64,000 nt of DNA from an uncultured Candidatus Saccharibacteria bacterium (GCA_964350735.1 CAYGKO010000004.1:83583-147582), one strand, 5' to 3'. Positions 7,469 to 37,641 are shown, counted from the stretch's first letter. Numbers and translations: made by a program. The notes: generated by a model not told the origin, from the sequence alone.

Positions 7469-8140
7469 TTACGGATTACTCAACCGATACTCCGTCGCAT
7501 CCCCAATCATCTGATTCACCACTCGTTCATGCGTTTCTGGCGTAATGTGTTCGTAGCGTAGAAGTTCGTCAGCTGCATCAATACCGCGCTGTAAATTCCC
7601 TCCTTCAGGAATGCTCTGTATAGACATGAGATTAGAACTTCCTAGTGCAGCCCCACCAGTGTAGTTATACTCTTCTCGTAACGCACTGTAGGGGTTATCA
7701 AGCGGCGCTGGACCACAACCATGTAAGCCGAACTGCCGACAATCAGCTGCTTCAGGACGAGGTGTTGGTAGTGGAGACGTAGGTGTACTCCCGTCAGGCA
7801 ATACTGCTCCTTCCGGTCGGGCCCCAGGCACGGGCGCCTCAAGTGGTGCAAACGGGCTCACCGCTTCTTCGACATCTACCCCAAACGTAGCAGCGGCAAT
7901 AGACAATATTGTATACGCGGACAGCATTATCAATAAACCAATCAAACCCCATAAAATATGTTTCTTCCCCTTTTCTTTGGCTTGCGGATTACTAGCTCCT
8001 GCCACATATTCAAAACAACCATACAAAAAGAAAATCACTGCTACCACTGTCATTAGCGTGATCAAAGGGAAGAAAATAGCTGCATTCAATTTCTGAACGA
8101 AGCTTTTAGCTAAATCTACGGCAGCGGCATGAACAATCAT
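7469..8140 (-). CDS. VirB2/TrbC-like (T4SS-pilin-like) two-TM protein with a Pro- and Cys-rich C-terminal domain
   Basis: N-terminal module LITLMTVVAVIFFLYGCFEYVAGASNPQAKEKGKKHILWGLIGLLIMLSAY is TM-loop-TM with a charged turn. Last gene of the four-gene operon. The N-terminal ~95 aa is paralogous to 26206-26523. Confidence 0.6.
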   Translation of the reverse strand: MIVHAAAVDLAKSFVQKLNAAIFFPLITLMTVVAVIFFLYGCFEYVAGASNPQAKEKGKKHILWGLIGLLIMLSAYTILSIAAATFGVDVEEAVSPFAPLEAPVPGARPEGAVLPDGSTPTSPLPTPRPEAADCRQFGLHGCGPAPLDNPYSALREEYNYTGGAALGSSNLMSIQSIPEGGNLQRGIDAADELLRYEHITPETHERVVNQMIGDATEYRLSNP

Positions 8141-8149
8141 AAAATGTAA

Positions 8150-8971
8150 TTAGTTTGCATACAATGAAAAATGATTTCCTGTCGCAACTCCCTCTACACA
8201 ATTACTAGCTCCTAGACAAGATCCACCAGGACCTGGTTCATACACCGCTCGAAACCCCAATGCTGTCGCTTGTGCTTGAAAGGATTTCACACGTTCAGAA
8301 GTCCAGTCTCGATCTTTGAATACAATATCTACACACGTCCCGTCTCCGTGACAAGCTGACTTATGAGTTCGAGTGGGTGGAAATCCTTCAGTTACCTCAA
8401 GTTCAACACCACTTGATCGTGCGAGTCCGGCTAAACGCTCGCCGTATTCTGCCTCAACCGTACAACTTCTAGAATTTTTACATGAAACTGCAGTTGAAAT
8501 ATCAACACACGTAGGGCAGCCTGCACTAGCCTTTGCAGACAACTCAGTACCCGCCTCAGGCCCTTCTAAAGCATTAACATCACGAGCCACCGGCTTCACC
8601 ATACCACCACACTCTACCAGCCCCCACGCATCCAAACCACCAGAGTCAGTGGTGATTCGCAATACAGTATCCACAATCAACCACGCAGACAACACAATAA
8701 TGAATCCAATCACCACATTAGTGAACAACCCTTTTGCTTCAGCAGCTGCGCTCGAGTTTCCACCTGAGGTGAGCAGCTTAACGCCAGCCACGGCGATCAT
8801 AATGACCGCAATCACCACACAAATGGTAATCAGAAAGTTAACAATCCCATTTACCATATCAAGCAAGTTGCAGAAGTCACACTCGGGACCAGAGCAGGTT
8901 ACTAACGCAGCGGTCGCAAACTCAGGTATAGCTGTCACTAGTAAAACTGGAATGAGAAAAAGAAATTTCAT
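8150..8971 (-). CDS. Secreted protein with a VirB2-like pilin module and a Cys-rich C-terminal domain, possibly an M15-like peptidoglycan peptidase
   Basis: Signal peptide MKFLFLIPVLLVTAIPEFATA. Pilin-like hairpin VNGIVNFLITICVVIAVIMIAVAGVKLLTSGGNSSAAAEAKGLFTNVVIGFIIVLSAW. C-terminal HKSACHGDGTCVD...GNHF resembles the Zn-ligand pattern S-x-H-x-x-G-x-x-D...H of M15 peptidases. The peptidase call is inference only. Confidence 0.55.
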   Translation of the reverse strand: MKFLFLIPVLLVTAIPEFATAALVTCSGPECDFCNLLDMVNGIVNFLITICVVIAVIMIAVAGVKLLTSGGNSSAAAEAKGLFTNVVIGFIIVLSAWLIVDTVLRITTDSGGLDAWGLVECGGMVKPVARDVNALEGPEAGTELSAKASAGCPTCVDISTAVSCKNSRSCTVEAEYGERLAGLARSSGVELEVTEGFPPTRTHKSACHGDGTCVDIVFKDRDWTSERVKSFQAQATALGFRAVYEPGPGGSCLGASNCVEGVATGNHFSLYAN

Positions 8972-8973
8972 AT

Positions 8974-9489
8974 TTATTGAAACAATACAGCGTCAGGGCA
9001 AAAACTAAGACCAAGCTCCTGTCCCGCAAAAAACTCATTGACTCCAGCCCTGGTTCGTACTGATACGTCTAAAGAGCAAGCTGTCTCTTTATCTAGATTT
9101 AATGCTGATAAAAATGCCTGCTCTGCAACAACTCGCACCTCAGCTAGTGGCTCGGCCTCTAAGCTGATCTGGAAGTAATTATACGACTCATAGAACGTTA
9201 AGGCATAAGGTTCGTTTTCTACATCAAAACCACCCGCAAAAACCCAAGCATCGGTACCCACTTGATCAGCTCGTTCTTTCACATTTGTGATAGTAATTAA
9301 TTGACCTTCTTTATTTAAAATCATCAACGAAGTCTGCTCTCCTGGTACACCTGATGAGACTGGGGACGTGATATCAACAAAATCAACGGCTCTCGGTTCA
9401 GACACATCCACTGTGGTACGCAAGAAATAACTCACTATAACTATAAGCATCAGTATCCCAGCTACGATGACTAGTATATTTTTAAACAT
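8974..9489 (-). CDS. Hypothetical membrane-anchored protein (N-terminal TM helix); operon member
   Basis: Length is 171 aa. N-terminus ILVIVAGILMLIVIVSYFL. Gaps of 2-3 nt to both flanking genes. Confidence 0.55.
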   Translation of the reverse strand: MFKNILVIVAGILMLIVIVSYFLRTTVDVSEPRAVDFVDITSPVSSGVPGEQTSLMILNKEGQLITITNVKERADQVGTDAWVFAGGFDVENEPYALTFYESYNYFQISLEAEPLAEVRVVAEQAFLSALNLDKETACSLDVSVRTRAGVNEFFAGQELGLSFCPDAVLFQ

Positions 9490-9491
9490 AT

Positions 9492-10445
9492 TTATCTTAG
9501 TTTACACAGATTATTACGGGAAGTTTGCACACCACACTTTACCGCACTACAGGCCCAGTCACCTAAATCTCCCGACTGTTTAGCCAGCCTGATTGCTATT
9601 TGTTCATTACACTGAGGGTACTGAGCAGCTTTTGTTCGACACTCAGCAGCAAGAGCTTCTTTGCCGGACACTACGGCATATTTTTTAATGCCGTTTGAGC
9701 TGCGGCCATCTTCCTTGAACGCACTCGGGCAATCTAGGTTTAGTGGACCGTCAGGTGTATCACACTGTAATTTATGAACTGGGAGGTTGATTTGAAAGGT
9801 GCCTACTGAGTATCCACCTCCACCAGTAAGTTTATCAGTACCGCTCTCAGCCGTGGCGTTGCAACCACTCTCTTGACTCACAATTTTTGCCATATCGCCA
9901 GCAAAATCTCCCCAACCCCGACTTCGTAGAGCATCTTCACTACAAGGTCCCGATTTTGCAGCTACACAACTACCAGCTAAAGCGCTGGAGTTTCCAATAA
10001 AGCCTGTGCCTGATCGGTCCGCTAAGGGAACCTCAACTGGTCGGGTGGGATAAATACACTCCACCGTGCGCCAGTTTAAGGATGGATTACCGTCATCAAT
10101 CAAAACTCCAAACAAAAGATCGATGAAAAGAAACGCCGCTAAGATAATAATATATCCAATTGCCACATTAGTAATCATCTCCTTGGCTTTTTTGGCTGCA
10201 TCAGCATTTCCACCCGAGGTCAGCATTCGGAAGCCAGCAAATATAAACACTAATACTGCGATACTCGAAGCAAGCACGATAATAAACTGGATCAGATTAT
10301 TTACCAGCTGTACAAACTCACACGTACCACAACTCGATGGGTCGTTACCAGAACACTGCAGTGGCACTAGCTGTTCAGCCTGGACCAGCTCGGGAGTCAG
10401 TAACACCAACAGCAAGACGACGGGAATAATCAGAAATCTAAACAT
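9492..10445 (-). CDS. Secreted fusion protein: VirB2-like pilin module plus a family-1 lytic transglycosylase (VirB1/Slt-like) domain
   Basis: The likely true start is the internal ATG at 10445, which gives the signal peptide MFRFLIIPVVLLLVLLTPELVQA. The ORF track extends to 10658. Pilin-like hairpin LIQFIIVLASSIAVLVFIFAGFRMLTSGGNADAAKKAKEMITNVAIGYIIILAAF. Lytic-transglycosylase motifs IVSQESGCNATAE (E-S) and GYSVGTFQIN (GLMQ-like). Confidence 0.65.
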   Translation of the reverse strand: MFRFLIIPVVLLLVLLTPELVQAEQLVPLQCSGNDPSSCGTCEFVQLVNNLIQFIIVLASSIAVLVFIFAGFRMLTSGGNADAAKKAKEMITNVAIGYIIILAAFLFIDLLFGVLIDDGNPSLNWRTVECIYPTRPVEVPLADRSGTGFIGNSSALAGSCVAAKSGPCSEDALRSRGWGDFAGDMAKIVSQESGCNATAESGTDKLTGGGGYSVGTFQINLPVHKLQCDTPDGPLNLDCPSAFKEDGRSSNGIKKYAVVSGKEALAAECRTKAAQYPQCNEQIAIRLAKQSGDLGDWACSAVKCGVQTSRNNLCKLR

Positions 10446-10681
10446 ACGCGTAATAGTAAAATGGTAGCACACTACAGGAGGCTTTTCTCCGCCTCGAAGA
10501 TATGGTAGTTTATAGCACTTGTGAATGCTTGGAGGCCTAGCTACCAACGCACTCAGAAGCAAATGCGTCGGTGGCAGAAATAAAGCGGATAGCTTTATTT
10601 CAAAAATCGGAGCACGATGTGAGCTTGCGAACCAGTGCGACCACACTTTGTTTTGCAATTATAAAAATGAGTAGTCACTAC

Positions 10682-10874: not shown

Positions 10875-11393
10875 ATGATCTTTCGTTCTTTGACACTCGT
10901 CTTTATTCTTAGCATGCTCTGGCCAACTACAGCCTTAGCTTTGTGTGATTATCGAGCTATCTTCGATCAAAATTTAGCCCTAATCTTCGATGAAGAAGAT
11001 CCGAAAGCTGCACTCCCAGCCCTCGACCATGTCGCCATGACGAAAAGTGCGACGGACATGCGCGGGAGGTCACCGACACCAGAAGAATCCTTGATCGGTC
11101 TGGCAGCTTTGACCGAAATCATCACAAACAAAAAAGAAGGTGAAATTGTCAGTGGCACGGTTGTAGTCGACGAGGTGAAGTATGGAGGTGGTCCTCAAAT
11201 TCCTGGAGATCTGGAGGTGGCTGGAGGAAATCATCCTGGTGAACACACTTTTTATGTGCGTTTCAATAAGCGCACATGTCGAGTGACAGATGTGAACATC
11301 GGTATCTTCTATTCACTTCTAAGTCGACTTAGAAATCATGAAAGCATAAGAAGCATTCGTGATGAGGTTCATAAACAACAGACAAACCGCTGA
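10875..11393 (+). CDS. Secreted hypothetical protein
   Basis: Signal peptide MIFRSLTLVFILSMLWPTTALA. Length is 172 aa. An RBS-like ggagg lies 8 nt upstream. Confidence 0.55.
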   Translation: MIFRSLTLVFILSMLWPTTALALCDYRAIFDQNLALIFDEEDPKAALPALDHVAMTKSATDMRGRSPTPEESLIGLAALTEIITNKKEGEIVSGTVVVDEVKYGGGPQIPGDLEVAGGNHPGEHTFYVRFNKRTCRVTDVNIGIFYSLLSRLRNHESIRSIRDEVHKQQTNR

Positions 11394-11469
11394 ATCGTAT
11401 GAATCACAAAATAATCACACGCCGCCCACCCAGGGCGGCGACTTTTTTTATTTACTCTATAATAAGCTA

Positions 11470-12948
11470 ATGATTAATCTGATTGCGCGTCTGCAGCAAA
11501 AACCGTTGTTGCTCTGGAGCGCCTGCGGCGTCCTCCTCGGACTAGCGATGCTAAGTCCTCTGCTAAGTCTCTTACTGATTCCAGGTCTACTACTGTTTTT
11601 TTATGGACTAGATATAACTACGACACGGATCAATCTCTTTTGGTACAGCACTCTAGCCGGCACGCTCAAAAGCATGGGGGCGCTCGCTTGGCTGTGGCAG
11701 ATGGATCCGGCCGCTTGGCATGCCAGTACTCACACGGCAGCAAGTGTTGCAGTACTGTGCTTCTACTGGCTGTCTGCCTCACTCGTCATTGGACTTGGCC
11801 TGAGCTGCACCGTACTAGTATTTGTGTCGATCCGTAGATTTTCACCCTCCATCTGGTTAACCTTACCTTTATTGTGGGTACTTGGTGAAGCAATTGGATC
11901 AGCGCTGTTTTCACTATACTCCTGGGCGCCGCATATCCCACTGCACGCTGGCATGAGTTTCGGATATATCGGCTATCCGCTGGTACAGTTGCCGATCTTG
12001 ACTGGATTCGCAGTGTTAGGTGGTGTCTATGGTCTCGGACTGGTCACTGTCTTATGTGTATTACTGGTATACAAGCTATTGGTAACAAAACGAGCACCCG
12101 TCCTGCTCGCAGCACTTTGTGCGGTCTGCATACTTTCATATGCACTGACCACGTTACTTGTCACGACAGAACAACAAAACCGAACTGTATTGATAGCAGA
12201 AACAGACTACTCCCTCGCTTCTCTCAATACCCAGGCTGGTTTTGCTCGACGTACTGCCGAAGCCAAAAATATGGTACGAGACGCCTTACAGCTACAGTCT
12301 GACTACATCGTCTTACCTGAGCACAGCAATTTCACCAGAAACTTCTCTACTCCTCAAAAAGCCCTGACCTACATCGAGCAGCAAGCTTCATCTGAAGTTG
12401 TACTGATAGACACATTAGCCACCTCTTCAGTTAGAAACAAACGTACCCTGCGCTCGTACACATACACCACTAAAGACCCTCAGGTGTATGTTCAGGAAAA
12501 ATCATACTTAGTGCCACATGGTGAATACTTACCGGTGTATCATCAGTTATTTTTAGAGTTATTTACCCCTCGAACTACTTGGGAGAAATTTGTCCAAAAC
12601 AAAAACTTCCTTCCTCGCACTATCAACACTCTAAACCCTGACTTGAGGCTACCTAGTGTACTTTTCTGTTACGAAAGTCTCGTACCCTGGCAAGCAAAAA
12701 ACCTAGCTATCCGCTCTGAGATACCATTCATTGCTCATACTGTCTCCCATGGTTGGTTTAAAGGAGCTTCAATTTTAGAACATCAACAATCTTTAATGTT
12801 GCGCACTCAGGCAATATTTAGTCAAACTCACATTATTCAAGCCACAAATATGGGTCCGCATGCAGTATACGAACCAACTGGTCAAGTTTCATATGGAGAA
12901 TTAGTCAGTCAGTCTGGACTCTGGCGACTCTACACAATAGACATTTAG
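11470..12948 (+). CDS. lnt: Apolipoprotein N-acyltransferase-like protein: polytopic N-terminal domain plus a CN-hydrolase domain
   Basis: Multi-TM N-terminal region, then catalytic-Cys motif VLFCYESLVPW (the Lnt ICYE motif) and IVLPEHSNF. Start chosen at the MINLIARLQQKPLLLWSACG methionine; the ORF track starts at 11359. Confidence 0.65.
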   Translation: MINLIARLQQKPLLLWSACGVLLGLAMLSPLLSLLLIPGLLLFFYGLDITTTRINLFWYSTLAGTLKSMGALAWLWQMDPAAWHASTHTAASVAVLCFYWLSASLVIGLGLSCTVLVFVSIRRFSPSIWLTLPLLWVLGEAIGSALFSLYSWAPHIPLHAGMSFGYIGYPLVQLPILTGFAVLGGVYGLGLVTVLCVLLVYKLLVTKRAPVLLAALCAVCILSYALTTLLVTTEQQNRTVLIAETDYSLASLNTQAGFARRTAEAKNMVRDALQLQSDYIVLPEHSNFTRNFSTPQKALTYIEQQASSEVVLIDTLATSSVRNKRTLRSYTYTTKDPQVYVQEKSYLVPHGEYLPVYHQLFLELFTPRTTWEKFVQNKNFLPRTINTLNPDLRLPSVLFCYESLVPWQAKNLAIRSEIPFIAHTVSHGWFKGASILEHQQSLMLRTQAIFSQTHIIQATNMGPHAVYEPTGQVSYGELVSQSGLWRLYTIDI

Positions 12949-23428: not shown

Positions 23429-23944
23429 ATGACTCTCAGAGATAAGTTCACCCACCAAATGAAGAGCGGGACAATCGGATTTCTTTCTTTCGTTCTCGCA
23501 ATTGCCTCAATTGTGGCAGTGTGGGCGTATGATTCATCATACCTTAATACATTGATGGATTGGAATCTGGCTAGCATCAAATGGGTAGCCGCTCAAATCC
23601 CCATCTACGGCGATAAGATGGAATCAGCTCTTCGCTTTCTAGCTGGGGAAAAAGCTTTGATTTTGATTGAGTTCGGTCTCGTATTCAAGATCTTCATCAA
23701 AATAATTGCTCCTATAATCCCTTGGAGGGTCGTGAGCATCTCAATCTTCATCGGGATTTTGGGTTGGGTTGCCTTTACCTTCCGAGAAAGCCTGCCGACA
23801 GCAGTTGGCGACTGGTTCGCCAACCTGATGAACCTGGCGACAGCTGGGGACAGCTGGGGACTGATCTACGCTGTGGGTCCGGTCGTTGTCACTACCATCG
23901 TGGTGGCTCTGACATGGGCTTTCAGGGGGAAGCTCTTCCGCTGA
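23429..23944 (+). CDS. Polytopic membrane protein, hypothetical
   Basis: Length is 171 aa with four predicted TM segments. Contains an in-frame gacagctgggga x2 micro-repeat. Confidence 0.55.
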   Translation: MTLRDKFTHQMKSGTIGFLSFVLAIASIVAVWAYDSSYLNTLMDWNLASIKWVAAQIPIYGDKMESALRFLAGEKALILIEFGLVFKIFIKIIAPIIPWRVVSISIFIGILGWVAFTFRESLPTAVGDWFANLMNLATAGDSWGLIYAVGPVVVTTIVVALTWAFRGKLFR

Positions 23945-24138
23945 AACAGGCGGCGTTGTCTTCGGACTGCGCCGCCTGTATTTTTTATAGTTTTATAAGA
24001 ATACCTATATTTTTAGGGGTATTATATCAAATTATGCTTGACTTTTTTATATAAATATGGTATCATATTGGCAGTGGTGAGGTTTGTCCCACCCTTGGAA
24101 ATCGCTCGGCGCTTTCGAGTAAGGAGCAATTTTCAGGG

Positions 24139-25521
24139 GTGACAGACCCCACCAACATCAACCCTACAGCGTGGCTTCGCCACGCTGATGAACAGGAGTT
24201 CATTGACATGGATACACATCTCAAAAAGGCCCTATGGTTTTTAGGAGCAGCTGCTTTCATTACAGCAGTTTACTTGCTCTTGCCCGCATTTGGCTGGAAT
24301 CCAGGATACTGGAGCTGGCCGATGCTTGGAACAGTAGTTATCTTATCCACAGCTGTTTTATGGCAGCTTTGGAAAGGTTGGTTAAGCAACTGGTGGACTC
24401 CAGTCCAGCAGACGCAAGCAACACCTCCTGGAGCTACACCACCTGCCACACCAGCAGTTCCTCCATCAACATCAATCAGAAGGAGCCATACTATGCAGAC
24501 TCTGTCTCCGAACGGTCTCACACCGTTTCAGCAGCAGATTTCCACCTTTTGTGCTGCAATAGCAGCATCTCTATTGACTGCTCGCATCATCGCTACCTTC
24601 GTTTGGAACACCGAGCAGGGATTCACGATCATTGCGATCTTTTCTCTACTCTACTTCCTGGTCGGAGGCGCTTATCTCAATGGTGGCCTCGAACACTCTG
24701 TACAGGGATTTCTTGGGAGGCCGACGCCATGGGTACTGATCAATGGTCTATCATGGGGTCTCCCTCGACCATTTGGCCAGTCCCTCTTTAGGCGTTCAAT
24801 TGCTCCTCAAACGAGCAACTTTGAAGGAGAGAATGCCATTGCTCAAGTTAACGCTCGGGACGGTGGCCAGGTAAGTGTTGGAGTAGTCAAACAATGGCGT
24901 ATTTGTGACGTACGATTAGCTGGACAATTTACACCCGAGGTACTCGCATCACGCGTACGTGATGTTGAAGACCGCGGTGTTCGCTGGTTTGCACTCTATT
25001 ACGACTCTGATGGAACCGGAGCAAACAACCTCACTCACCAAAAAGCGCCCTTCTCGCGCTACCTGATTGGTGACGAAACACTAACAGAGATCAAACTGTT
25101 CGATGAAAGAGGTGTCGAAACTGGCACCTACAGAATTGACCATAATGATCCAAACTCAATGCGTAACAAGTTTGCTTTGCTTGGTGTGGAAGCAATTACT
25201 GCTGAAGTTAAGGACGTCAATCCTCCGCAAGAAGTTATTGACGCTCGAAACGGAGCGGCAGCAGAAGCTGGTCAAGCTGAGAGTGAGAAGCGAGACATTG
25301 CATCTTTTCGTGCGCGAGTACTTGAAGCTCAATACGGAACAAGTGATCCGGATGAGATGAAGAGGCTTAGAAGTCAAGCTGGTTTCGAACCAGCAATGTC
25401 TAGAGAAGATGCTGTTCGCGAAGTACGAGCTGCACGAAAAAACCTCACCGACATCAACGTCAGCGGAAGCGCTGGTGATTTCACCAAAGGTGCTGCCCTT
25501 GGCGGTACCAAACAACCTTAA
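24139..25521 (+). CDS. Membrane protein with a C-terminal SPFH/band-7 (stomatin/prohibitin-like) domain
   Basis: N-terminal TM segments and a Pro/Thr linker. C-terminal VEAITAEVKDVNPPQEVIDARNGAAAEAGQAESEKR resembles the SPFH signature followed by an Ala/Glu-rich coiled coil. Confidence 0.55.
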   Translation: MTDPTNINPTAWLRHADEQEFIDMDTHLKKALWFLGAAAFITAVYLLLPAFGWNPGYWSWPMLGTVVILSTAVLWQLWKGWLSNWWTPVQQTQATPPGATPPATPAVPPSTSIRRSHTMQTLSPNGLTPFQQQISTFCAAIAASLLTARIIATFVWNTEQGFTIIAIFSLLYFLVGGAYLNGGLEHSVQGFLGRPTPWVLINGLSWGLPRPFGQSLFRRSIAPQTSNFEGENAIAQVNARDGGQVSVGVVKQWRICDVRLAGQFTPEVLASRVRDVEDRGVRWFALYYDSDGTGANNLTHQKAPFSRYLIGDETLTEIKLFDERGVETGTYRIDHNDPNSMRNKFALLGVEAITAEVKDVNPPQEVIDARNGAAAEAGQAESEKRDIASFRARVLEAQYGTSDPDEMKRLRSQAGFEPAMSREDAVREVRAARKNLTDINVSGSAGDFTKGAALGGTKQP

Positions 25522-25531
25522 GGAGGTTCCT

Positions 25532-26131
25532 GTGACAACCATACAAGACCTGCGAGGATGGATCTTGACTATCCTGATCATCATCGCAACCGTTGTTCTA
25601 CTTCGGTATTTATTGCCTGAGTTCGACACAATGCCAGAAAGCCGATCGGTGGCAGAATCCACCTTTCTCCAAAACTGGCGTTGGGTCGAGATTGCTGGAT
25701 GGATCATGCTCATTGCGGGCGTGATCGCATTCGCCGTGTCTTTGACCCGCTGGGTCGATGGTGGAGGCACAGTCGGCATCGTAGCTGCCATCGTTGGCGG
25801 TCTCGTGTTGGCCGGTTTCTACGGCACCGTCTCAGCTAAGCAAGACGGACTTTCCCTACCCGGAAGTTCGACGACGATCGACTGGACTAAGAACTTCAGC
25901 TCAGATGTCTTTGTAGCAAATGCTACAGGAACTAGAAAAGCTATGATCAACGACTGCGTAGTGTCTCCCGACGCAACGCATTCAATCAAAGGATCGTATG
26001 CCACTTGGACGCCAAAGAGTGGTGTAACCTCTGAAATCATCGTCTACTACTTCCCCAAAAAGAAAGGGAGTTGCGAAGCTGCCTACTTGGCTATTCAAGC
26101 AGCTCTCCAGGCGGAAAAAGCAGATGAGTGA
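25532..26131 (+). CDS. Membrane protein, hypothetical
   Basis: AAGGAGG RBS 6 nt before the GTG at 25532, directly after the upstream stop codon. Three predicted TM helices. The ORF track's ATG at 25409 would overlap the upstream gene. Confidence 0.5.
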   Translation: MTTIQDLRGWILTILIIIATVVLLRYLLPEFDTMPESRSVAESTFLQNWRWVEIAGWIMLIAGVIAFAVSLTRWVDGGGTVGIVAAIVGGLVLAGFYGTVSAKQDGLSLPGSSTTIDWTKNFSSDVFVANATGTRKAMINDCVVSPDATHSIKGSYATWTPKSGVTSEIIVYYFPKKKGSCEAAYLAIQAALQAEKADE

Positions 26132-26205: not shown

Positions 26206-26523
26206 CTACGGTATAAACGCTGACGGTGCAAAGCTGCTCCCCGGCTCTTGGACTTCAATCCCAAACGTGGCAGCAGCGATCGACAAAATAGCGAAGGCAG
26301 ACAACATTACCAGGAGCCCTATCAGCCCCCATAAAATGTGCTTACTCCCCTTCTCTTTTGCTTGTGGGTTACTCGCTCCTGCCACGTATTCAAAACAACC
26401 ATACAAAAACACAACTAGTGCAATTACGAGCATCAGAGTAATTAATGGATATAAAATAACTTCCAAAAGCTTATTGACAAAGGTTTGGGCAAAATCTGCG
26501 GCTGGTCCGGCGTAGGCAATCAT
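26206..26523 (-). CDS. VirB2/TrbC-like pilin-domain protein; paralog of the 7469-8140 N-terminus
   Basis: LYPLITLMLVIALVVFLYGCFEYVAGASNPQAKEKGSKHILWGLIGLLVMLSAFAILSIAAATFG is about 80% identical to the 7469-8140 product over ~90 aa. DNA-level identity is visible. Confidence 0.6.
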   Translation of the reverse strand: MIAYAGPAADFAQTFVNKLLEVILYPLITLMLVIALVVFLYGCFEYVAGASNPQAKEKGSKHILWGLIGLLVMLSAFAILSIAAATFGIEVQEPGSSFAPSAFIP

Positions 26524-26577
26524 ACGAAAGTGAGTCTGGATTCTGAACTAGTCAGAATCCAAGTCAATTTCCAATGA

Positions 26578-26943
26578 CTAGTTTGAAGTGGGAACGTTTG
26601 GCAGGTTCTCAATATTTTCATCATCTGAAAAACCAAGACCACCAGCGATCAGATTCACAATACCGAAAACTGATACCATAATCACAAATCCCACAATCGC
26701 ATAGATCATGTACGTCCGGCCCTCTTCTCGCTTATCAGAATCATCTCGCCCAATAATCAAGAAGTTGAACACACCGTAGAGGAAGAACAAAAGTGCTACC
26801 GCAAAAAGTAACGGGATCAATGTACTGTTAATAAAAGATGAGATATCACCAAGGAAGTCATTGATCTCTCCAAATTGGGCTCCGGCTACCGCTGGCATGA
26901 GCGCGAGCATAAAAGCACCTAGACTGACTGAAATAAATTTCAT
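26578..26943 (-). CDS. VirB2/TrbC-like small two-TM protein with a C-terminal NLPNVPTSN motif
   Basis: Signal peptide MKFISVSLGAFMLALMPAVAGA. Hairpin LLFAVALLFFLYGVFNFLIIGRDDSDKREEGRTYMIYAIVGFVIMVSVFGI. Confidence 0.55.
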   Translation of the reverse strand: MKFISVSLGAFMLALMPAVAGAQFGEINDFLGDISSFINSTLIPLLFAVALLFFLYGVFNFLIIGRDDSDKREEGRTYMIYAIVGFVIMVSVFGIVNLIAGGLGFSDDENIENLPNVPTSN

Positions 26944-27034
26944 ACAAACGTAACTAATTAATTTTTATACTATAAGTATACCGCTAAACTGGCTATATAA
27001 AAGGACTTTCTACCTACCCTGTGTATAGTGCACT

Positions 27035-27292
27035 TTACAAACCAAAGAGTGAATTGCGGAGTATTTCAAGAATCCCCCACACTCCTGACATCACTATCAG
27101 CACCAACACCCCAACCAGTGCTGTCTGCTTCCCTTCGTCCACCTTGGTTTGGTCGCCACCATTGATCACCCAGGCGTCAATGATCTTCCAGATGATGAAT
27201 AATAGCGTCAGGGCAAAAATAAGTGGTACCGCTAAGCTCAGTAAGCCGATGAATAAATCTACTAAATCTGCGAAATTTTTAGGTGTGCCCAT
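27035..27292 (-). CDS. VirB2/TrbC-like small two-TM protein
   Basis: Length is 85 aa. LAVPLIFALTLLFIIWKIIDAWVINGGDQTKVDEGKQTALVGVLVLIVMSGVWGI. Confidence 0.5.
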   Translation of the reverse strand: MGTPKNFADLVDLFIGLLSLAVPLIFALTLLFIIWKIIDAWVINGGDQTKVDEGKQTALVGVLVLIVMSGVWGILEILRNSLFGL

Positions 27293-27295
27293 AGA

Positions 27296-27802
27296 TTAGA
27301 TCGTTATCGCCTTAACTGTGCCTTCAATGACTCTCAGAATAACGAAAGCACCGAGAATAAGAATCCCACCAATCACTGAGTACAGCAAAGCTTTGTTGGC
27401 TTGAGAGATCTGTTCCGGATTGCCCCGAGCGGTGACGTACAGGAAGCCAGCGTAGATAATAAAAAATACGATCAACGGAGTAGCGAAGACCAGAACTACT
27501 TCAATCAGATCCATGAACAGATCAGTGATGGAGGTAGCTTTGAGAGGATTTTTGATAGTGACAGAACCTCCGCCAGAAGGAGATTCCCGCTCGCCAACTT
27601 CGCTACCATCTCCCCCAAAAGCGTCTAGAGGATCTCGCTCGCCAACTTCACCAACGTCGCCTCCGAAAGCGTCTGAAGGATCTCGAGCTCCAACTTCACC
27701 AACGTCGCCTCCGAAAGCGTCTAGAGGGTCTTCAGCAAACGTAAAATGAACAACTGCTAACTGGGAGCAGATCATTAGACATATCACTAGTAAAAATTTC
27801 AT
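27296..27802 (-). CDS. VirB2/TrbC-like protein with N-terminal tandem DPxDAFGGDVGEVGxR repeats
   Basis: Signal peptide MKFLLVICLMICSQLAVVHFTFA. Three or more 18-aa repeats. C-terminal hairpin LVFATPLIVFFIIYAGFLYVTARGNPEQISQANKALLYSVIGGILILGAFVIL. Confidence 0.6.
   Translation of the reverse strand: MKFLLVICLMICSQLAVVHFTFAEDPLDAFGGDVGEVGARDPSDAFGGDVGEVGERDPLDAFGGDGSEVGERESPSGGGSVTIKNPLKATSITDLFMDLIEVVLVFATPLIVFFIIYAGFLYVTARGNPEQISQANKALLYSVIGGILILGAFVILRVIEGTVKAITI
27560..27730. repeat. Intragenic tandem DNA repeat, about 54 nt x 3, encoding the DPxDAFGGDVGEVG units
   Basis: gatctcg(a/c)(g/t)c(gc/t)ccaacttcaccaacgtcgcctccgaaagcgtct(a/g)gagg repeated head-to-tail. Confidence 0.7.
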
Positions 27803-27803
27803 A

Positions 27804-29108
27804 TTAAAAACTCAAGGTTATGCGATCAACTGCGTCACTCACTGCTTCACTAATCCGGGCACGGTTTGAGGCGACGTCTTCGATCATAGTTTGTAGTATA
27901 CCACCCGTACTGGCTGGATTCGGGTCGAGCCAACCGGCCGAGATAAGCGCCGCATTGAATATAATCTGTTCAAAGGCTCCGCTACTTCCTCCTCCTAAGA
28001 CCGAACGATGCACTGGTGCCATCTGCAATTCACGTGAGAGAGCGAGCGCGACATCTGGCCGCGCTAGTGTCTGAGCGGCGGCGTACGCCCCGTTACTATT
28101 GCCAGCTGCCCGTGGAATTGCAAAGCCGTAGAAATTACCGTACGTACGTCGAATCGTCGCGTTAGCTCCCTGCGGGACCATGGCAGCATCAAAGTTTAGA
28201 TTTGGATTACGATCAGAAATTAAACCGACTTCACTACCAAATCCAAAGTAAAGAGCGAGGTCGCCCGCGATAAAAGCAGTCCGGTCTTCGGCCAAAGCTC
28301 GATTCCAACTGTAGGCCGGGCTATTGGCGTTGGCGAAGTCTGTATAAAACTGCAGCGTCGCATCCATTGGCGCGCGACTGGTTTGCTGTCCTTGATTGAG
28401 AGCTACCACATACCCCCGATCTCCTTCTTCTACCATTCGACTACCCGACTGGAGTAAGAGCATTGAAAATACTGCCGTCGCATTACGGACGTTGCGGTAC
28501 TCACCAAAGGCAATTGCGCTACGTAGAATTGAACGATTACTATCACGCTGAGTCAGCGCTGGCACTACTGACCCCACTAATCCTTCCCACGTTGTTGGTG
28601 CTTGCGCTAGACCAGCGCCAGAAAAAATGTCGCGGTTCCAGTAGAGAATAATTGGATCAACCACAAACGGCAACGCGTAGACACCATCGCGTAACGCAAA
28701 GATCTCAGCTCCATCCACATAACTATCTCTGAATTGTCGTTCTGGTAAACTCTCGTATGGAATCGGAAGCAGCTTAGCTCGTAAATTCACGAGCTGGTGA
28801 TGTGGCAAGACAATAAGATCAGGCGAACGTCCTTCAGCGATAGCGTTCACTAAGTCACTATTAAAATTTCGCGCATCTACTTGGGTGTATCTAACCACTT
28901 TAAAGTTTTCGTTTTGGTCTTTCAGGGTATTGAAGATAGGAGTGAACGCCTCACTGGGTAATGAGCCCCAAATAATCACTTGCCCGCCATAGAGCTGCTC
29001 TTCAGTAGATGCACTCGGGCGATAATTACCAATCAGCACCAGTGCTACCAAAGCCATGACAGCAAAGACCGCCAGTAGAACAATTTGAAATGGTCGAAGA
29101 TTGCTCAT
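27804..29108 (-). CDS. Extracellular solute-binding protein (ABC-type SBP family 1-like) with an N-terminal TM anchor; orphan, no permease or ATPase nearby
   Basis: The pattern KVVRYTQVD...SPDLIVLPHHQLVNL...YALPFVVDPIILYWNRDIFSGAGLAQAPTTWEGL matches SBP_bac_1 hallmarks. Length is 434 aa. Confidence 0.55.
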   Translation of the reverse strand: MSNLRPFQIVLLAVFAVMALVALVLIGNYRPSASTEEQLYGGQVIIWGSLPSEAFTPIFNTLKDQNENFKVVRYTQVDARNFNSDLVNAIAEGRSPDLIVLPHHQLVNLRAKLLPIPYESLPERQFRDSYVDGAEIFALRDGVYALPFVVDPIILYWNRDIFSGAGLAQAPTTWEGLVGSVVPALTQRDSNRSILRSAIAFGEYRNVRNATAVFSMLLLQSGSRMVEEGDRGYVVALNQGQQTSRAPMDATLQFYTDFANANSPAYSWNRALAEDRTAFIAGDLALYFGFGSEVGLISDRNPNLNFDAAMVPQGANATIRRTYGNFYGFAIPRAAGNSNGAYAAAQTLARPDVALALSRELQMAPVHRSVLGGGSSGAFEQIIFNAALISAGWLDPNPASTGGILQTMIEDVASNRARISEAVSDAVDRITLSF

Positions 29109-29110
29109 AG

Positions 29111-29671
29111 CTATGGTTTACGAAAAGCTAATCCATAATGATGGTCGCCAGCATCGTAGGAACGTTCATACACAAAGCCAGCAGATTCCGCTAGAGCTTT
29201 CGTTGCGGATTCATCAAACACGTGACCTGGCTGTGGACCAAGTCCATTAAACGATTCACTCCAGTCAACCACAAACAGCTTGCCCCCTGATCTCAGCGTG
29301 CGGCTGATCTCTTGTAAAGCTATTGCTTTGTCATCCATTTGAAACAGTGTATTGATAAGGATTGCAGCGTCGAGCACTTCTGATTCTAATTTAGAACCCT
29401 GCAGGACTTCCAAATCGCACCATAACGTATCGATATTATTCAGCTGTTCTTTTCGAGCGATTTCCCCTAACTTCTCCACCAAACTCTTTTGGATTTCGCA
29501 GGCATAAATACGACCAGAACTCTCCACTGCTGCAGCCAAAGCTTTAAGGAAATAGCCACTGCCAGCTCCGAAATCAGCCACGATATCACCCGGGCGCAAG
29601 TGGAAATGCCCAACCACTTTGTCAGGTTCTACGAAGCGACCGGTCATGGGTGGGGTTTGATTCATTATCAA
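29111..29671 (-). CDS. Class I SAM-dependent methyltransferase
   Basis: Motif I VADFGAGSGYF. Post-I acidic residue. Motif LFVVDW. Length is 186 aa. Confidence 0.75.
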   Translation of the reverse strand: MIMNQTPPMTGRFVEPDKVVGHFHLRPGDIVADFGAGSGYFLKALAAAVESSGRIYACEIQKSLVEKLGEIARKEQLNNIDTLWCDLEVLQGSKLESEVLDAAILINTLFQMDDKAIALQEISRTLRSGGKLFVVDWSESFNGLGPQPGHVFDESATKALAESAGFVYERSYDAGDHHYGLAFRKP

Positions 29672-29710
29672 TAAGTATACCGCACGAATATTTGTAAAAT
29701 AATCATGATG

Positions 29711-30064
29711 TTAGTTATTAGTTGTTGGCACGTCAGGCACCCGCTGCAATCGTACTTCTTCACGCACGTTGATACCGGCTTCACCGTCACCATCTAAATC
29801 TGAATTGGTGACCAAACCTGAGTACGCAGAACCAAGCCAGATGAATCCCATAACGATTCCGTAAATAGCCAAACCTAATAGGAACAAAAGGAATGACCAG
29901 AGAAGCTGCTCACGGCCTTCTTCTCGTTTAGGCTCTTCACCGGGACCAATCACGAAGTAATTGATGCAACCATACAAAAACATAATCAAACCGATCGCAA
30001 AAATAAACGGGATTAGATAGACCGTGAAAAACGTAAAGACATACCCAAGAATAGTCGATATCAT
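29711..30064 (-). CDS. VirB2/TrbC-like small two-TM protein with a C-terminal RVPDVPTTNN motif
   Basis: LIPFIFAIGLIMFLYGCINYFVIGPGEEPKREEGREQLLWSFLLFLLGLAIYGIVMGFIWL. Confidence 0.55.
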   Translation of the reverse strand: MISTILGYVFTFFTVYLIPFIFAIGLIMFLYGCINYFVIGPGEEPKREEGREQLLWSFLLFLLGLAIYGIVMGFIWLGSAYSGLVTNSDLDGDGEAGINVREEVRLQRVPDVPTTNN

Positions 30065-30162: not shown

Positions 30163-32640
30163 TTAGGTCATCACCACGATCGTCGCGATCGAGTCACCAG
30201 CCCGCATCTTCATCACCTTCACTCCTTGTGTATCACGTCCTAATGTCGGAACATCCTTGAGAGGCAACTTGATCACTTGTCCTTTTTTACTCATTACTAC
30301 CAACTCGCCTTCGGCTTTTTCTTCTTGCGAAAGCACTGCTCCACCGACTAGTTTTCCAGTTTTGCTGGTCACCTTTGCTGTCTTAATACCACTACCACCT
30401 CGATTTTGCACTTTGTATTCCTTGGCTGGTGTGGTTTTTCCAAATCCGTTTTCCATGACTACCAATATCTCTCTATCAGTATTACCAGCAGCCAATACTT
30501 CAGCCGAAACTAGGTAGTCGTCTTTTTTCAGCTTCATCGCTCCGACTCCAGCCGCTGTACGGCCCATTTGTCGTACATCGCTCGCTTTGAATCGAATTGC
30601 CTGTCCTTCATGAGAGATGATAGACACCTCATCTTTTGGACCAATGAACTGGGCTGCAATGAGTGCATCATCATCCTTAAGCGTAATAGCAATCAGTCCA
30701 CTTCGGCGCACATCTTTGAAGGAGGCTGCATCAGATTTTTTAGCGACGCCATTTTTCGTGACCATCATCAAGCTCCAGTCACCTGTCCACTCATCTTTTC
30801 GCACCGGCAATACTGATGTGACTTTTTCATCACCGTTAACTGACAAGAAGTTAGCAATTGACTTTCCTTTAGTAGCCCGTCTTCCTTCGGGGATTTCGTA
30901 CATTTTGCACTGATAGACTTTTCCTTTATCGGTAAAGAAAAGAAGATCACTGTGTGATGAGGTAGTCAAAAGCATTGTCACCACATCTTCTTCTTTAGTA
31001 TTTAAGTCAACTACACCAACACCACCCCGCTTCTGCACCTTATACTCAGCTGGATTGGTTCGTTTGACGTACCCACCCTGAGTCAGCACCAACACAGACT
31101 CTTCGTCTGCAATCAAGTCTTCAGCTGACATGTTTTTGACGCCGCCCTTTACAATCTTCGTGCGGCGTTCATCACCAAACTTCTCAGCAATCTCTTCGAG
31201 ATCTTGCTTCACGATTGCCATCATCTTCTTCTTGCTTTTAAGGATCGCGTCAAGCTCTTTGATCAGCTTCTGGATCTCTTTTAGCTCATCCTCAATTTTC
31301 TTGCGCTCGAGGCCAGCCAACTTCTGTAGTCGCATGTCAAGAATCGCTTGCGCCTGAACCTCTGAAAACTTAAATTCCTTCATCAACTTAGCGTGCGCTT
31401 CAGGCACATCTTTGGCAGCTCGAATGATCTTGATGATCTTGTCGATGTGGTCAAGAGCCTTCTTTAGCCCAAGCAAGATATGTTCGCGGTCTTGAGCCTT
31501 ATTAAGGTCGTACTGCGTTCGACGTCGAATAACTTCTGCTCGGTGCTTAACGAACTCCTGCAGAATTGTTTTCAATGACACTGTCTGAGGTACGCCATCC
31601 ACAAGCGCCACCATATTGTAGTGGAACTTATCTTCGAGCTGCGTGTGCTTGTAGAGCTTATTTAAAACTGTCTGCGGGTTAGCACCGCTCTTAAGGTCGA
31701 TCACTACTCGGATATCGCTGGTTGACTCATCACGCATTTCTTTGATACCTTCCACCTTTTTGTCTCGTACCAAATTCGCAATCTTCTCCTGCATATCTGC
31801 TTTGTTCACACGGAACGGGATCGATGTAATGACGATTGAGAAGTTTCCTTTTTTGTCTTCAACTATTTCAGCTTCGCCGCGCACTACCACACCACCGCGT
31901 CCATTGGCGTACGCGTGAGCGATATCTTTTTTATTAAAAGCCACTCCTCCCATCGGGAAGTCTGGACCTTGTACAAACTTAAGCAGATCATCAGTGGAGG
32001 CACTTGGATTATCGATCAAGTGTCCTACTGCCGCTGAAATTTCTCGCAGGTTGTGTGGTGGGATATTGGTCGCCATTCCCACGGCAATTCCAAGGGTTCC
32101 CATGAGGAGTAGGTTTGGCACAGCAGCTGGCAGTACCACCGGCTCTTTCTTGGTACCGTCGAAGTTTGGTCGCCAGTCGACAGTATCTTTTTCAAGGTCA
32201 CGCAGCATCTCTTCTGCCACCTTAGACATCTTCGCCTCAGTATATCGATACGCCGCTGCTGAGTCACCGTCGATTGAACCAAAGTTTCCTTGCCCGATTA
32301 CGAGTGGGTAACGAGTCGAGAATGTTTGAGCCAGCTTTACCATTGATTCGTACACTGCAACGTCACCATGCGGGTGAAAGCTACCCAAAACGTCTCCCAC
32401 TACCGTCGCAGACTTTTTAAACTTCGCGGTTGAGGTCAGACCATTAAGGCGCATCGAATACAAAATACGACGATGTACCGGCTTCAGCCCGTCGCGAATA
32501 TCAGGCAGGGCTCGACTGGTGATTACACTCATCGCGTAGTCGAGATAGGCAGTTTGCATCTCGTCAGTAATATTCTGTGGAATGATTCCACGAGCCTGTT
32601 CTGGGATTGGTGCGTCAGCTTTAGTGGTCTTTTTCGGCAT
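30163..32640 (-). CDS. gyrA: DNA gyrase subunit A
   Basis: Length is 825 aa. N-terminal [12 protein letters not shown] with the catalytic Tyr region. C-terminal beta-pinwheel repeats. gyrB is not adjacent. Confidence 0.93.
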
Positions 32641-36996: not shown

Positions 36997-37641
36997 ATGA
37001 ATATGTTCAAATCTAGTTCTAAGGAAGAAAAAGACACTATTCTTGATGCCGCAGAACTAACTCCCGAAGAACATCCGCTCACCGAGATCATCCGCTTCTC
37101 CATCATCGCACTTATCATCGTGATCCCGATCCGCATGTTTGTCGCCCAACCATTTATCGTCTCTGGCTCATCAATGGAAAATACTTTTCAGAGCGGCCAG
37201 TACCTGATCGTCGACCAAATCACCTACAAATTTGAAGAGCCAAAGCGGGGCGACGTCATTATCTTCCGCTATCCACGAGATATTTCTAAATTCTTCATCA
37301 AGCGCGTGATTGGACTCCCGGGCGATACCATCAGCATTGATGGCAACGTGGTCACCCTGAGCAATGAAACCCACCCTAACGGCATCGTGATTGATGAGCC
37401 ATATATTGCCTCTATGCAGCCCAACACCCGCCTCACCGAAGACCTGAGCGAAGGTGAATACTTTGTTATGGGCGACAACCGCGACGCCAGCTCTGACTCA
37501 CGAATGTGGGGAATCCTTCATGAAGACAAGATTGTCGGTCGCGCCCTGCTTCGACTGTTTCCGCTCACTGAGATTGGAACGTTCCCAGGAGGATACGACA
37601 CTGATGCCGTATTATCAGCCGAAGTTAGTAGTTTAGAATAA
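36997..37641 (+). CDS. lepB: Signal peptidase I
   Basis: Catalytic Ser box SGSSMENTF, Lys box KRVIGLPGD and GDNRDASSDSRMWG. Confidence 0.9.
   Translation: MNMFKSSSKEEKDTILDAAELTPEEHPLTEIIRFSIIALIIVIPIRMFVAQPFIVSGSSMENTFQSGQYLIVDQITYKFEEPKRGDVIIFRYPRDISKFFIKRVIGLPGDTISIDGNVVTLSNETHPNGIVIDEPYIASMQPNTRLTEDLSEGEYFVMGDNRDASSDSRMWGILHEDKIVGRALLRLFPLTEIGTFPGGYDTDAVLSAEVSSLE

Follow-up and report, generated by a model that had tools for sequence, protein, structure and literature searches.

We analysed a 64-kb stretch of DNA, referred to below as the window, from an uncultured Candidatus Saccharibacteria bacterium (GCA_964350735.1 CAYGKO010000004.1:83583-147582), in which two small minus-strand genes, fam1 (26578-26943, 121 aa) and fam2 (29711-30064, 117 aa), encode pilin-like proteins that share a C-terminal peptide. 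An earlier note, made from the sequence alone, had drawn attention to this peptide; both open reading frames (ORFs) are present, and the proteins end as quoted there, fam1 in ...ENIENLPNVPTSN (NLPNVPTSN) and fam2 in ...EVRLQRVPDVPTTNN (RVPDVPTTNN), each directly before the stop codon. The motif is conserved among homologs, selected at the level of the peptide, confined to pilin paralogs and inherited by paralogy, and in the structural model it lies in an unstructured segment past the helical hairpin. The tail is an undescribed feature of a system of known type, the VirB2-like pilin arrays of Patescibacteria. We tentatively favor the reading, to which we give somewhat less than an even chance, that it serves outside the cell as a docking peptide of polyproline-like form, recognized by a conserved, self-encoded partner as the pilin matures or assembles.

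The motif comprises residues L114-P-N-V-P-T-S-N121 of fam1 (26581-26604, minus strand) and V109-P-D-V-P-T-T-N-N117 of fam2 (29714-29740, minus strand). A six-frame scan of the window found the sequence P[ND]VPT in these two places only, both 7-8 codons ahead of a stop. Taken alone, the match between the two window proteins (5/7 residues identical) is at chance level: when C-terminal 12-mers from 73 non-overlapping ORFs of the window were compared in pairs, the best score over 7 residues was 5/7, a value that random sets reached in 198 of 300 cases. The significance of the motif therefore derives from its conservation in homologs and not from the window match alone.

Searches detected 191 homologs of fam1, of which the 120 listed (58-80% identity, 110-154 aa) were used for the motif counts, and nine homologs of fam2. 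The pattern [ILV]P[ND][VI]P was found within the last 12 residues of 119 of the 120 listed fam1 homologs and of all nine fam2 homologs, and the second proline is followed by exactly four residues in 126 of these 129 close homologs (range 3-5). In the joint 58-sequence alignment (A3), the invariant columns are P44, G75, F86, P115, P118 and N121, the last three of which belong to the motif. In the 19-sequence fam2 alignment (A4), which reaches 25-40% identity, they are Y16, P19, G25, G50 and the two motif prolines, P110 and P113. The fam2 prolines are invariant although the length of the preceding linker differs by more than 10 residues and the second transmembrane helix (TM2) is poorly conserved. 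A search with a narrower fam2 alignment yielded only two further metagenome loci, with the ends ...LQNVPNTPQRNI and ...VLEVPDTPQVRSD, both of which contain V-P-(N/D)-T-P.

The residue after the second proline is variable, being T, V, R, L or K in the fam2 homologs and T, S, K, I, A, N, L, M or V in the fam1 homologs. The motif (L/V)P(N/D)VPT(S/T)N proposed in the earlier note was accordingly retained in part: the conserved core is Phi-P-(N/D)-(V/I)-P-x-x-N (where Phi is a hydrophobic residue) rather than ...PT(S/T)N, and the threonine does not belong to it. The extended fam1 motif, I-E-N-L-P-N-V-P, has a hydrophobic residue at each third position, and the homologs show the same spacing as I-x-x-I-P-x-V-P or L-x-x-V-P-x-V-P (e.g. 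NIQNIPNVP and RLQRVPDVP). The peptide shared by the two window proteins can thus be written as Phi-x-x-Phi-P-(N/D)-V-P-x-x-N, present as NIENLPNVPTSN and RLQRVPDVPTTNN, and it follows a flexible, acidic linker of variable length.

In sixteen fam1 orthologs, third codon positions vary freely while I-P-N/D-V-P is kept, and the fam1 and fam2 tails of the window use differing codons at nearly every synonymous site. Judged from these codons, purifying selection acts on the tail as a peptide, which bears out the claim of a conserved extreme C-terminal peptide. Recent gene conversion or a DNA-level repeat was considered as the source of the shared tail and rejected because of the synonymous differences.

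The specificity of the motif was counted in the window together with 73 related loci, which gave 6935 ORFs of 45 aa or longer. In its strict form, the motif stands at the C-terminus of 25 of the 281 pilin-like ORFs and of none of the 6654 others, so that it is enriched at the C-termini of homologs, contrary to the chance similarity that the earlier note had named as its own possible undoing. The more general Phi-P-x-x-P end is found in 70/281 pilin-like ORFs and 52/6654 others. A HMMER search with the joint profile against 1.84 billion cluster representatives returned 9317 family members, and the pattern [ILVYF]P..P closes 37 of the 149 best representatives that were examined. Along the fam1 phylogeny the tail changes in a graded manner, from NIPNVPTxNx to NIP(S/N/A/T)(T/V)PTR and on to TIPGTPTL, YPDAPxxN or VPQVPQ. 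On this evidence, the window motif is the local form of a wider family tail of the Phi-P-x-x-P type, situated outside the Pfam domain. Many relatives are single polypeptides of 231-368 aa with two or three tandem pilin hairpins, ending in ...LPQV(K/Q/R)P (P0130-P0163); these pilins are concatenated covalently, and their C-terminal motif is akin to the fam1/fam2 tail.

The assignment of the two proteins to pilin-like two-helix proteins was upheld. fam1 matches PF18895 (T4SS_pilin) with 32.8 bits, above the cutoff of 26.6; fam2 reaches 16.8 bits, under the cutoff, but is a clear paralog of fam1. BLASTP aligns them over their whole length with 33% identity (E=7e-17), indicating that they are paralogs and that the tail was inherited, and the view that they are otherwise divergent had to be abandoned. 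The best NCBIfam model of both proteins is NF045849, the Mbov_0395 pilin-like conjugal transfer family of Mycoplasma integrative and conjugative elements, whose hairpin architecture they resemble; fam1 scores 36.9 bits, just under the family cutoff of 40 bits, and two further paralogs of the same array, fam3 and fam5, score 37-39 bits, likewise below it. With PF04956 (VirB2/TrbC), fam1 (E=0.042) and a second window ORF (8150-8971, E=3.9e-4) score below the cutoff. The NCBIfam scan gave no CTERM-type match. A profile search of the PDB returned no pilin, only spurious membrane helices, and a Foldseek search of the PDB with the fam1 model gave no match at E<=0.001, the helical hairpin being too simple to be diagnostic.

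In fam1, a signal peptide (residues 1-22, cleavage between AGA and QFG) is followed by an amphipathic N-terminal segment and a first transmembrane helix (TM1), which the loop GRDDSDKREEGR joins to TM2; FSDDENIENLPNVPTSN forms the tail. No signal peptide is present in fam2 or its homologs, which open with the first helix; the first residue of fam2 aligns with the start of mature fam1, and its tail reads ...GINVREEVRLQRVPDVPTTNN. In an AlphaFold2 model of fam1 built with 58 homologs, helices 27-66 and 69-101 form a hairpin with a predicted local distance difference test (pLDDT) score above 90, and residues 102-121 form a coil with a pLDDT of ~54. The peptide therefore lies after the second transmembrane helix, as had been proposed; tails extend 17-36 residues past TM2. 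fam1 has a signal peptide, and the loop between its helices contains four K/R residues whereas its tail in the window contains none, from which we infer that the fam1/fam2 tail is probably located outside the cytoplasmic membrane and, should a filament form, on its outer face. The solved F, T and H pilus structures show the termini of conjugative pilins at the outer surface.

fam1 and fam2 are paralogous VirB2-like (PF18895) two-helix membrane pilins, each ending in an acidic linker and the shared peptide. According to the docking reading, the tail would adopt an extended, polyproline-II-like shape with one hydrophobic stripe; it would be bound by an adjacent subunit, by an extracellular protein encoded at the locus or by an assembly factor, and possibly be clipped after docking. 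A candidate for such an extracellular partner is the solute-binding-like protein encoded in the same array (27804-29108). Φ-P-x-Φ-P ligands in the polyproline-II conformation, which are bound by SH3-type domains, are eukaryotic cytoplasmic signaling motifs. The tail resembles them in the Phi-P-x-Phi-P pattern, the three-residue hydrophobic spacing and its position in a flexible segment; this is a structural analogy only, no bacterial reader domain having been identified.

A self-encoded partner is also suggested by the behavior of the tail ends in 13 genomes that carry both fam1 and fam2: the tail-end class shifts jointly in the two paralogs, PTR occurring with P(T/R)R, and xxNx with xxN(N/D/E), which suggests a shared reader. 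Some lineages append 6-12 residues past the motif, e.g. IPSVPSTGGSSGRGN, and the motif is therefore independent of a free C-terminus. PDZ-like recognition of the free C-terminus was rejected for the same reason and because the last residue varies (R/T/N/V/S/Y). Cleavage of the asparaginyl-endopeptidase type after N/D was rejected as well, this position being S/A/T/E/G/Q in distant orthologs.

Several observations weigh against the docking peptide. The polyproline-II shape is read from the sequence pattern, the tail partner is hypothetical, and the monomer model is of low confidence in the tail. Only about two evolutionary transitions underlie the co-variation of the tail ends, and phylogeny is a confounder. 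Formation of a pilus by these proteins is conjectural: VirB4, VirB6 and VirD4 domains were not found in window ORFs of at least 100 aa, and the related loci have the same housekeeping synteny as the window. Finally, TrbC and TrhA, the only characterized VirB2-family pilins with C-terminal extensions, have the extension cut off and the pilin cyclized (PMC12037004, PMC13434634), and this precedent favors a cleaved pro-peptide.

The pro-peptide is the alternative that survives best, and we consider it possible but unlikely. The tail would be cut by a peptidase, and the new C-terminus might be joined to the N-terminus, giving a cyclic pilin. TrhA sheds its last five residues (AGIPD) and is cyclized, and TrbC sheds 27 and then four residues, the last four through the S26-family peptidase TraF (PMC12037004, PMC13434634). 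In keeping with such processing, fam1 has a cleavable signal peptide and a conserved mature N-terminus, QFGEIN, the GLGFS junction past TM2 is invariant, the tail-less paralogs fam4 and fam5 resemble already mature pilins, and an S26 peptidase is encoded 7 kb away in conserved synteny. The latter (36997-37641, plus strand), however, is the only S26 peptidase in the window, and it scores 145 bits with the signal peptidase I model TIGR02227 (cutoff 47) and 37 bits with the TraF model TIGR02771 (cutoff 100), indicating that it is a housekeeping signal peptidase I and not a TraF-type pilin cyclase. The co-occurring transpeptidase or protease that the earlier note had suggested looking for did not emerge, as the window contains neither a sortase nor another dedicated enzyme.

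Other features of the tail also fit poorly with cleavage. fam2 has the same tail without a signal peptide, and it would have no processed N-terminus to join, which weakens cyclization as a shared role. The fam2 motif is located 15-35 variable residues past TM2, which is awkward for ring closure, and the strongest conservation is found at the far end of the tail, not at a plausible cleavage junction. The tails show no clear similarity to AEIA or AGIPD except for 'IP(D/N)'. To summarize the comparison, the window proteins are like TrbC (RP4) and TrhA (R27) in being pilins of the VirB2 superfamily with a short conserved peptide past the last helix, on the extracytoplasmic side, and the leaving peptide of TrhA contains I-P-D. 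They differ from these pilins, which are processed by the S26 enzymes TraF and TrhF and cyclized head to tail, in the lack of a TraF-type peptidase in the window, in the missing fam2 signal peptide and in a proline-based motif separated from the helix by a variable linker of 12-35 residues, with cleavage itself being putative.

A permanent surface adhesion peptide for a ligand on the host cell or in the environment, used in an epibiotic lifestyle, is in our estimate quite unlikely. The tail is predicted to be outside the cell and unstructured, and the pilin arrays of Patescibacteria have been proposed to function in host interaction (PMC12102498; PMC12857230). Host-specific adhesins, however, usually diversify, whereas this motif stays nearly the same in over 100 clusters originating from many marine and freshwater samples, with each protein diverging elsewhere, and the joint change of the tail ends in both paralogs points to a self-encoded partner.

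We regard as improbable, and slightly more so, that the tail is a site of post-translational modification, such as O-glycosylation of Thr/Ser next to proline, or a proline cap against exopeptidases. The pilin of Pseudomonas aeruginosa 1244 is glycosylated on its C-terminal serine, and the Pro-Thr/Ser near the C-terminus of the window pilins recalls it; prolines, in turn, resist many exopeptidases. In fam2, however, the Thr/Ser is variable and can be replaced by V, R, L or K, the N-x-S/T sequon is absent, and no glycosyltransferase or oligosaccharyltransferase was found in the 64-kb window. A simple cap does not explain the conserved N/D and V or the upstream hydrophobic residues.

The analogy with LPXTG or exosortase signals drawn in the earlier note did not hold up, and covalent attachment of the pilin to the wall, a lipid or another subunit through a sortase-, exosortase- or rhombosortase-type signal is very improbable. 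LPNVPT resembles LPXTG superficially, the envelope is monoderm, and LPXTG and PEP-CTERM signals are likewise short, proline-containing motifs near the C-terminus of monoderm surface proteins. In contrast to these signals, the tail lacks the tripartite arrangement of motif, hydrophobic helix and basic cluster, only 0-4 residues following the core; the threonine after the second proline is variable, the motif is restricted to pilin paralogs, and no sortase or exosortase domain, and hence no cognate enzyme, was detected by Pfam and NCBIfam scans of the window. A functionless chance similarity, for which only the expected 5/7 match among the window C-termini speaks, is refuted by the presence of the motif in 128 of 129 homologs, the invariant prolines of both paralog families and the diverged synonymous sites.

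The two genes belong to a tight minus-strand array, delineated from ORFs and Pfam matches and situated 26-34 kb from the window ends. It is headed by gyrA (30163-32640), followed by fam2, a class I S-adenosylmethionine-dependent methyltransferase (29111-29671), a membrane-anchored SBP_bac_1-type solute-binding-like protein (27804-29108; PF01547, E=2.7e-16), fam5, fam4, fam1 and fam3. fam5 (27296-27802, 168 aa; PF18895, 31.8 bits) carries a signal peptide and, in three copies, an acidic 16-aa repeat; it is tail-less. fam4 (27035-27292, 85 aa), also tail-less, stops just past TM2; it gave no match in the Pfam scan and is recognized by the fam1+fam2 profile (E=7e-13). fam3 (26206-26523, 105 aa; PF18895, 30.3 bits) has a different tail, ...TFGIEVQEPGSSFAPSAFIP in the window and ...TFGIxVPx in its orthologs. 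The window thus encodes five paralogs at 26206-30064 and three more at 7469-10658, and its remaining genes are housekeeping genes (topA, relA/spoT, parB, clpB, infB, ftsA/Z, lepB, glmS and those of tRNA synthetases). The acidic repeats of fam5 are encoded by a 48-bp tandem repeat present in three copies (27588-27731, 84% matches); with the consensus DPxDAFGGDVGEVGxR, they lie between the signal peptide and the first helix.

A scan of one genome per species yielded 72 related loci, titled Paceibacterota, Kaiserbacteria, Nomurabacteria, Minisyncoccia or Parcubacteria. In 58 of them, the pilins come after the methyltransferase and the solute-binding-like protein, in an array bordered by gyrA and a rhodanese gene. 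The conserved order is gyrA, (fam2), methyltransferase, solute-binding-like protein, four pilin paralogs and, a few kb further on, the rhodanese gene, with fam2 being carried by only ~13 of these genomes. This synteny indicates that the array is old, chromosomal and vertically inherited; the bacterium that carries it is a marine Paceibacteria-type Patescibacterium. A tblastn search with fam1 against plasmid and phage collections found no homolog, and an origin of fam1 from a mobile element was rejected on this basis.

The solute-binding-like protein has no adjoining ATP-binding cassette (ABC) permease or ATPase and is an orphan inside the pilin array. Identification of the methyltransferase as an isoaspartyl methyltransferase was rejected, as it shows generic class I similarity only (pimt model TIGR00080, 19 bits; cutoff 159). 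The interval separating the last pilin from the rhodanese gene always contains one or two convergent membrane proteins of 250-490 aa (loci L004, L006, L013, L020, L021, L023 and L034, at ~10.7-13 kb; 23429-26131, plus strand, in the window). Their similarity between lineages is not detectable, making this a hypervariable slot beside a conserved array. In the window, this place is taken by a protein weakly resembling SPFH/Band 7 and by a DUF6234-like protein; the membrane proteins at 24139-25521 and 25409-26131 were rejected as conserved partners of the array, having no homologs there in other loci. Three contigs, L003 and L032 (titled Patiriisocius sp.) and L037 (titled Acidimicrobiales), carry the same pilin locus and synteny under the names of Flavobacteriia or Actinomycetota metagenome-assembled genomes, and are probably mis-binned.

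In the second pilin cluster (7469-10658, minus strand), PF18895 hairpins are fused to C-terminal extracellular domains of 130-200 residues, in proteins of 223, 273 and 388 aa. Since these paralogs carry large domains past the same hairpin, the pilin C-terminus can be regarded as a display site. The 388-aa protein has many cysteines and a weak match to the lysozyme-like SLT_3 (E=0.0018, below the cutoff), and it may be a cell-wall hydrolase that is membrane-anchored or displayed on a pilus. The gene at 7469-8140 and that at 26206-26523 (fam3), both on the minus strand and 18 kb apart, encode proteins with 71% identity over the first 100 residues (E=7e-49), after which one has only a tail of 20 residues and the other a further 130 residues; from the alignment, the pair seems to stem from a recent duplication in which the C-terminal passenger was swapped. 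Beside this cluster lies a gene for an Lnt-like apolipoprotein N-acyltransferase (11359-12948, plus strand; CN_hydrolase and LNT_N domains; TIGR00546, 88 bits against a cutoff of 133), a gene not expected in a monoderm Patescibacterium.

Patescibacteria widely carry VirB2-like pilin arrays, of which 441, with 2-11 genes each, have been described (PMC12102498), and in Southlakia epibionticum, the one species tested, the array is essential for epibiotic growth (Wang et al. 2023, PMC10633639). The window array is like the PF18895 arrays described by Quinonero-Coronel et al. (2025, PMC12102498) in that small two-helix proteins are encoded as 2-11 divergent paralogs, at times with non-pilin genes among them, on the chromosome of a monoderm member of the Candidate Phyla Radiation. 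It differs from them in not being near virB4 within the 64 kb and in being embedded in the context of gyrA, the methyltransferase and the solute-binding-like protein. The literature on these arrays (PMC12102498, PMC12857230, PMC10633639) does not mention the C-terminal motif. Going beyond the docking peptide as such, and as a doubtful proposal, the tail could represent an unrecognized assembly or maturation signal of Patescibacteria VirB2-like pilins. It would be a code independent of sortase and TraF, read by a dedicated extracellular reader, possibly the solute-binding-like protein of the array, and selecting paralogs for an essential filament associated with a type IV secretion system.

A strictly conserved, paralog-specific peptide on these pilins, predicted to face outward, is not surprising to a specialist but offers a handle on pilin maturation and assembly in a monoderm envelope. 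The tail is open to mapping by mass spectrometry, to mutation, to the classification of paralogs and to use as bait for a reader (e.g. as biotin-DDENIQNIPNVPTSNR). If the tail is a pro-peptide, C-terminal processing of pilins would extend beyond proteobacterial plasmids; if it is a docking peptide, it would represent a new assembly principle for pilins of the type IV secretion type.

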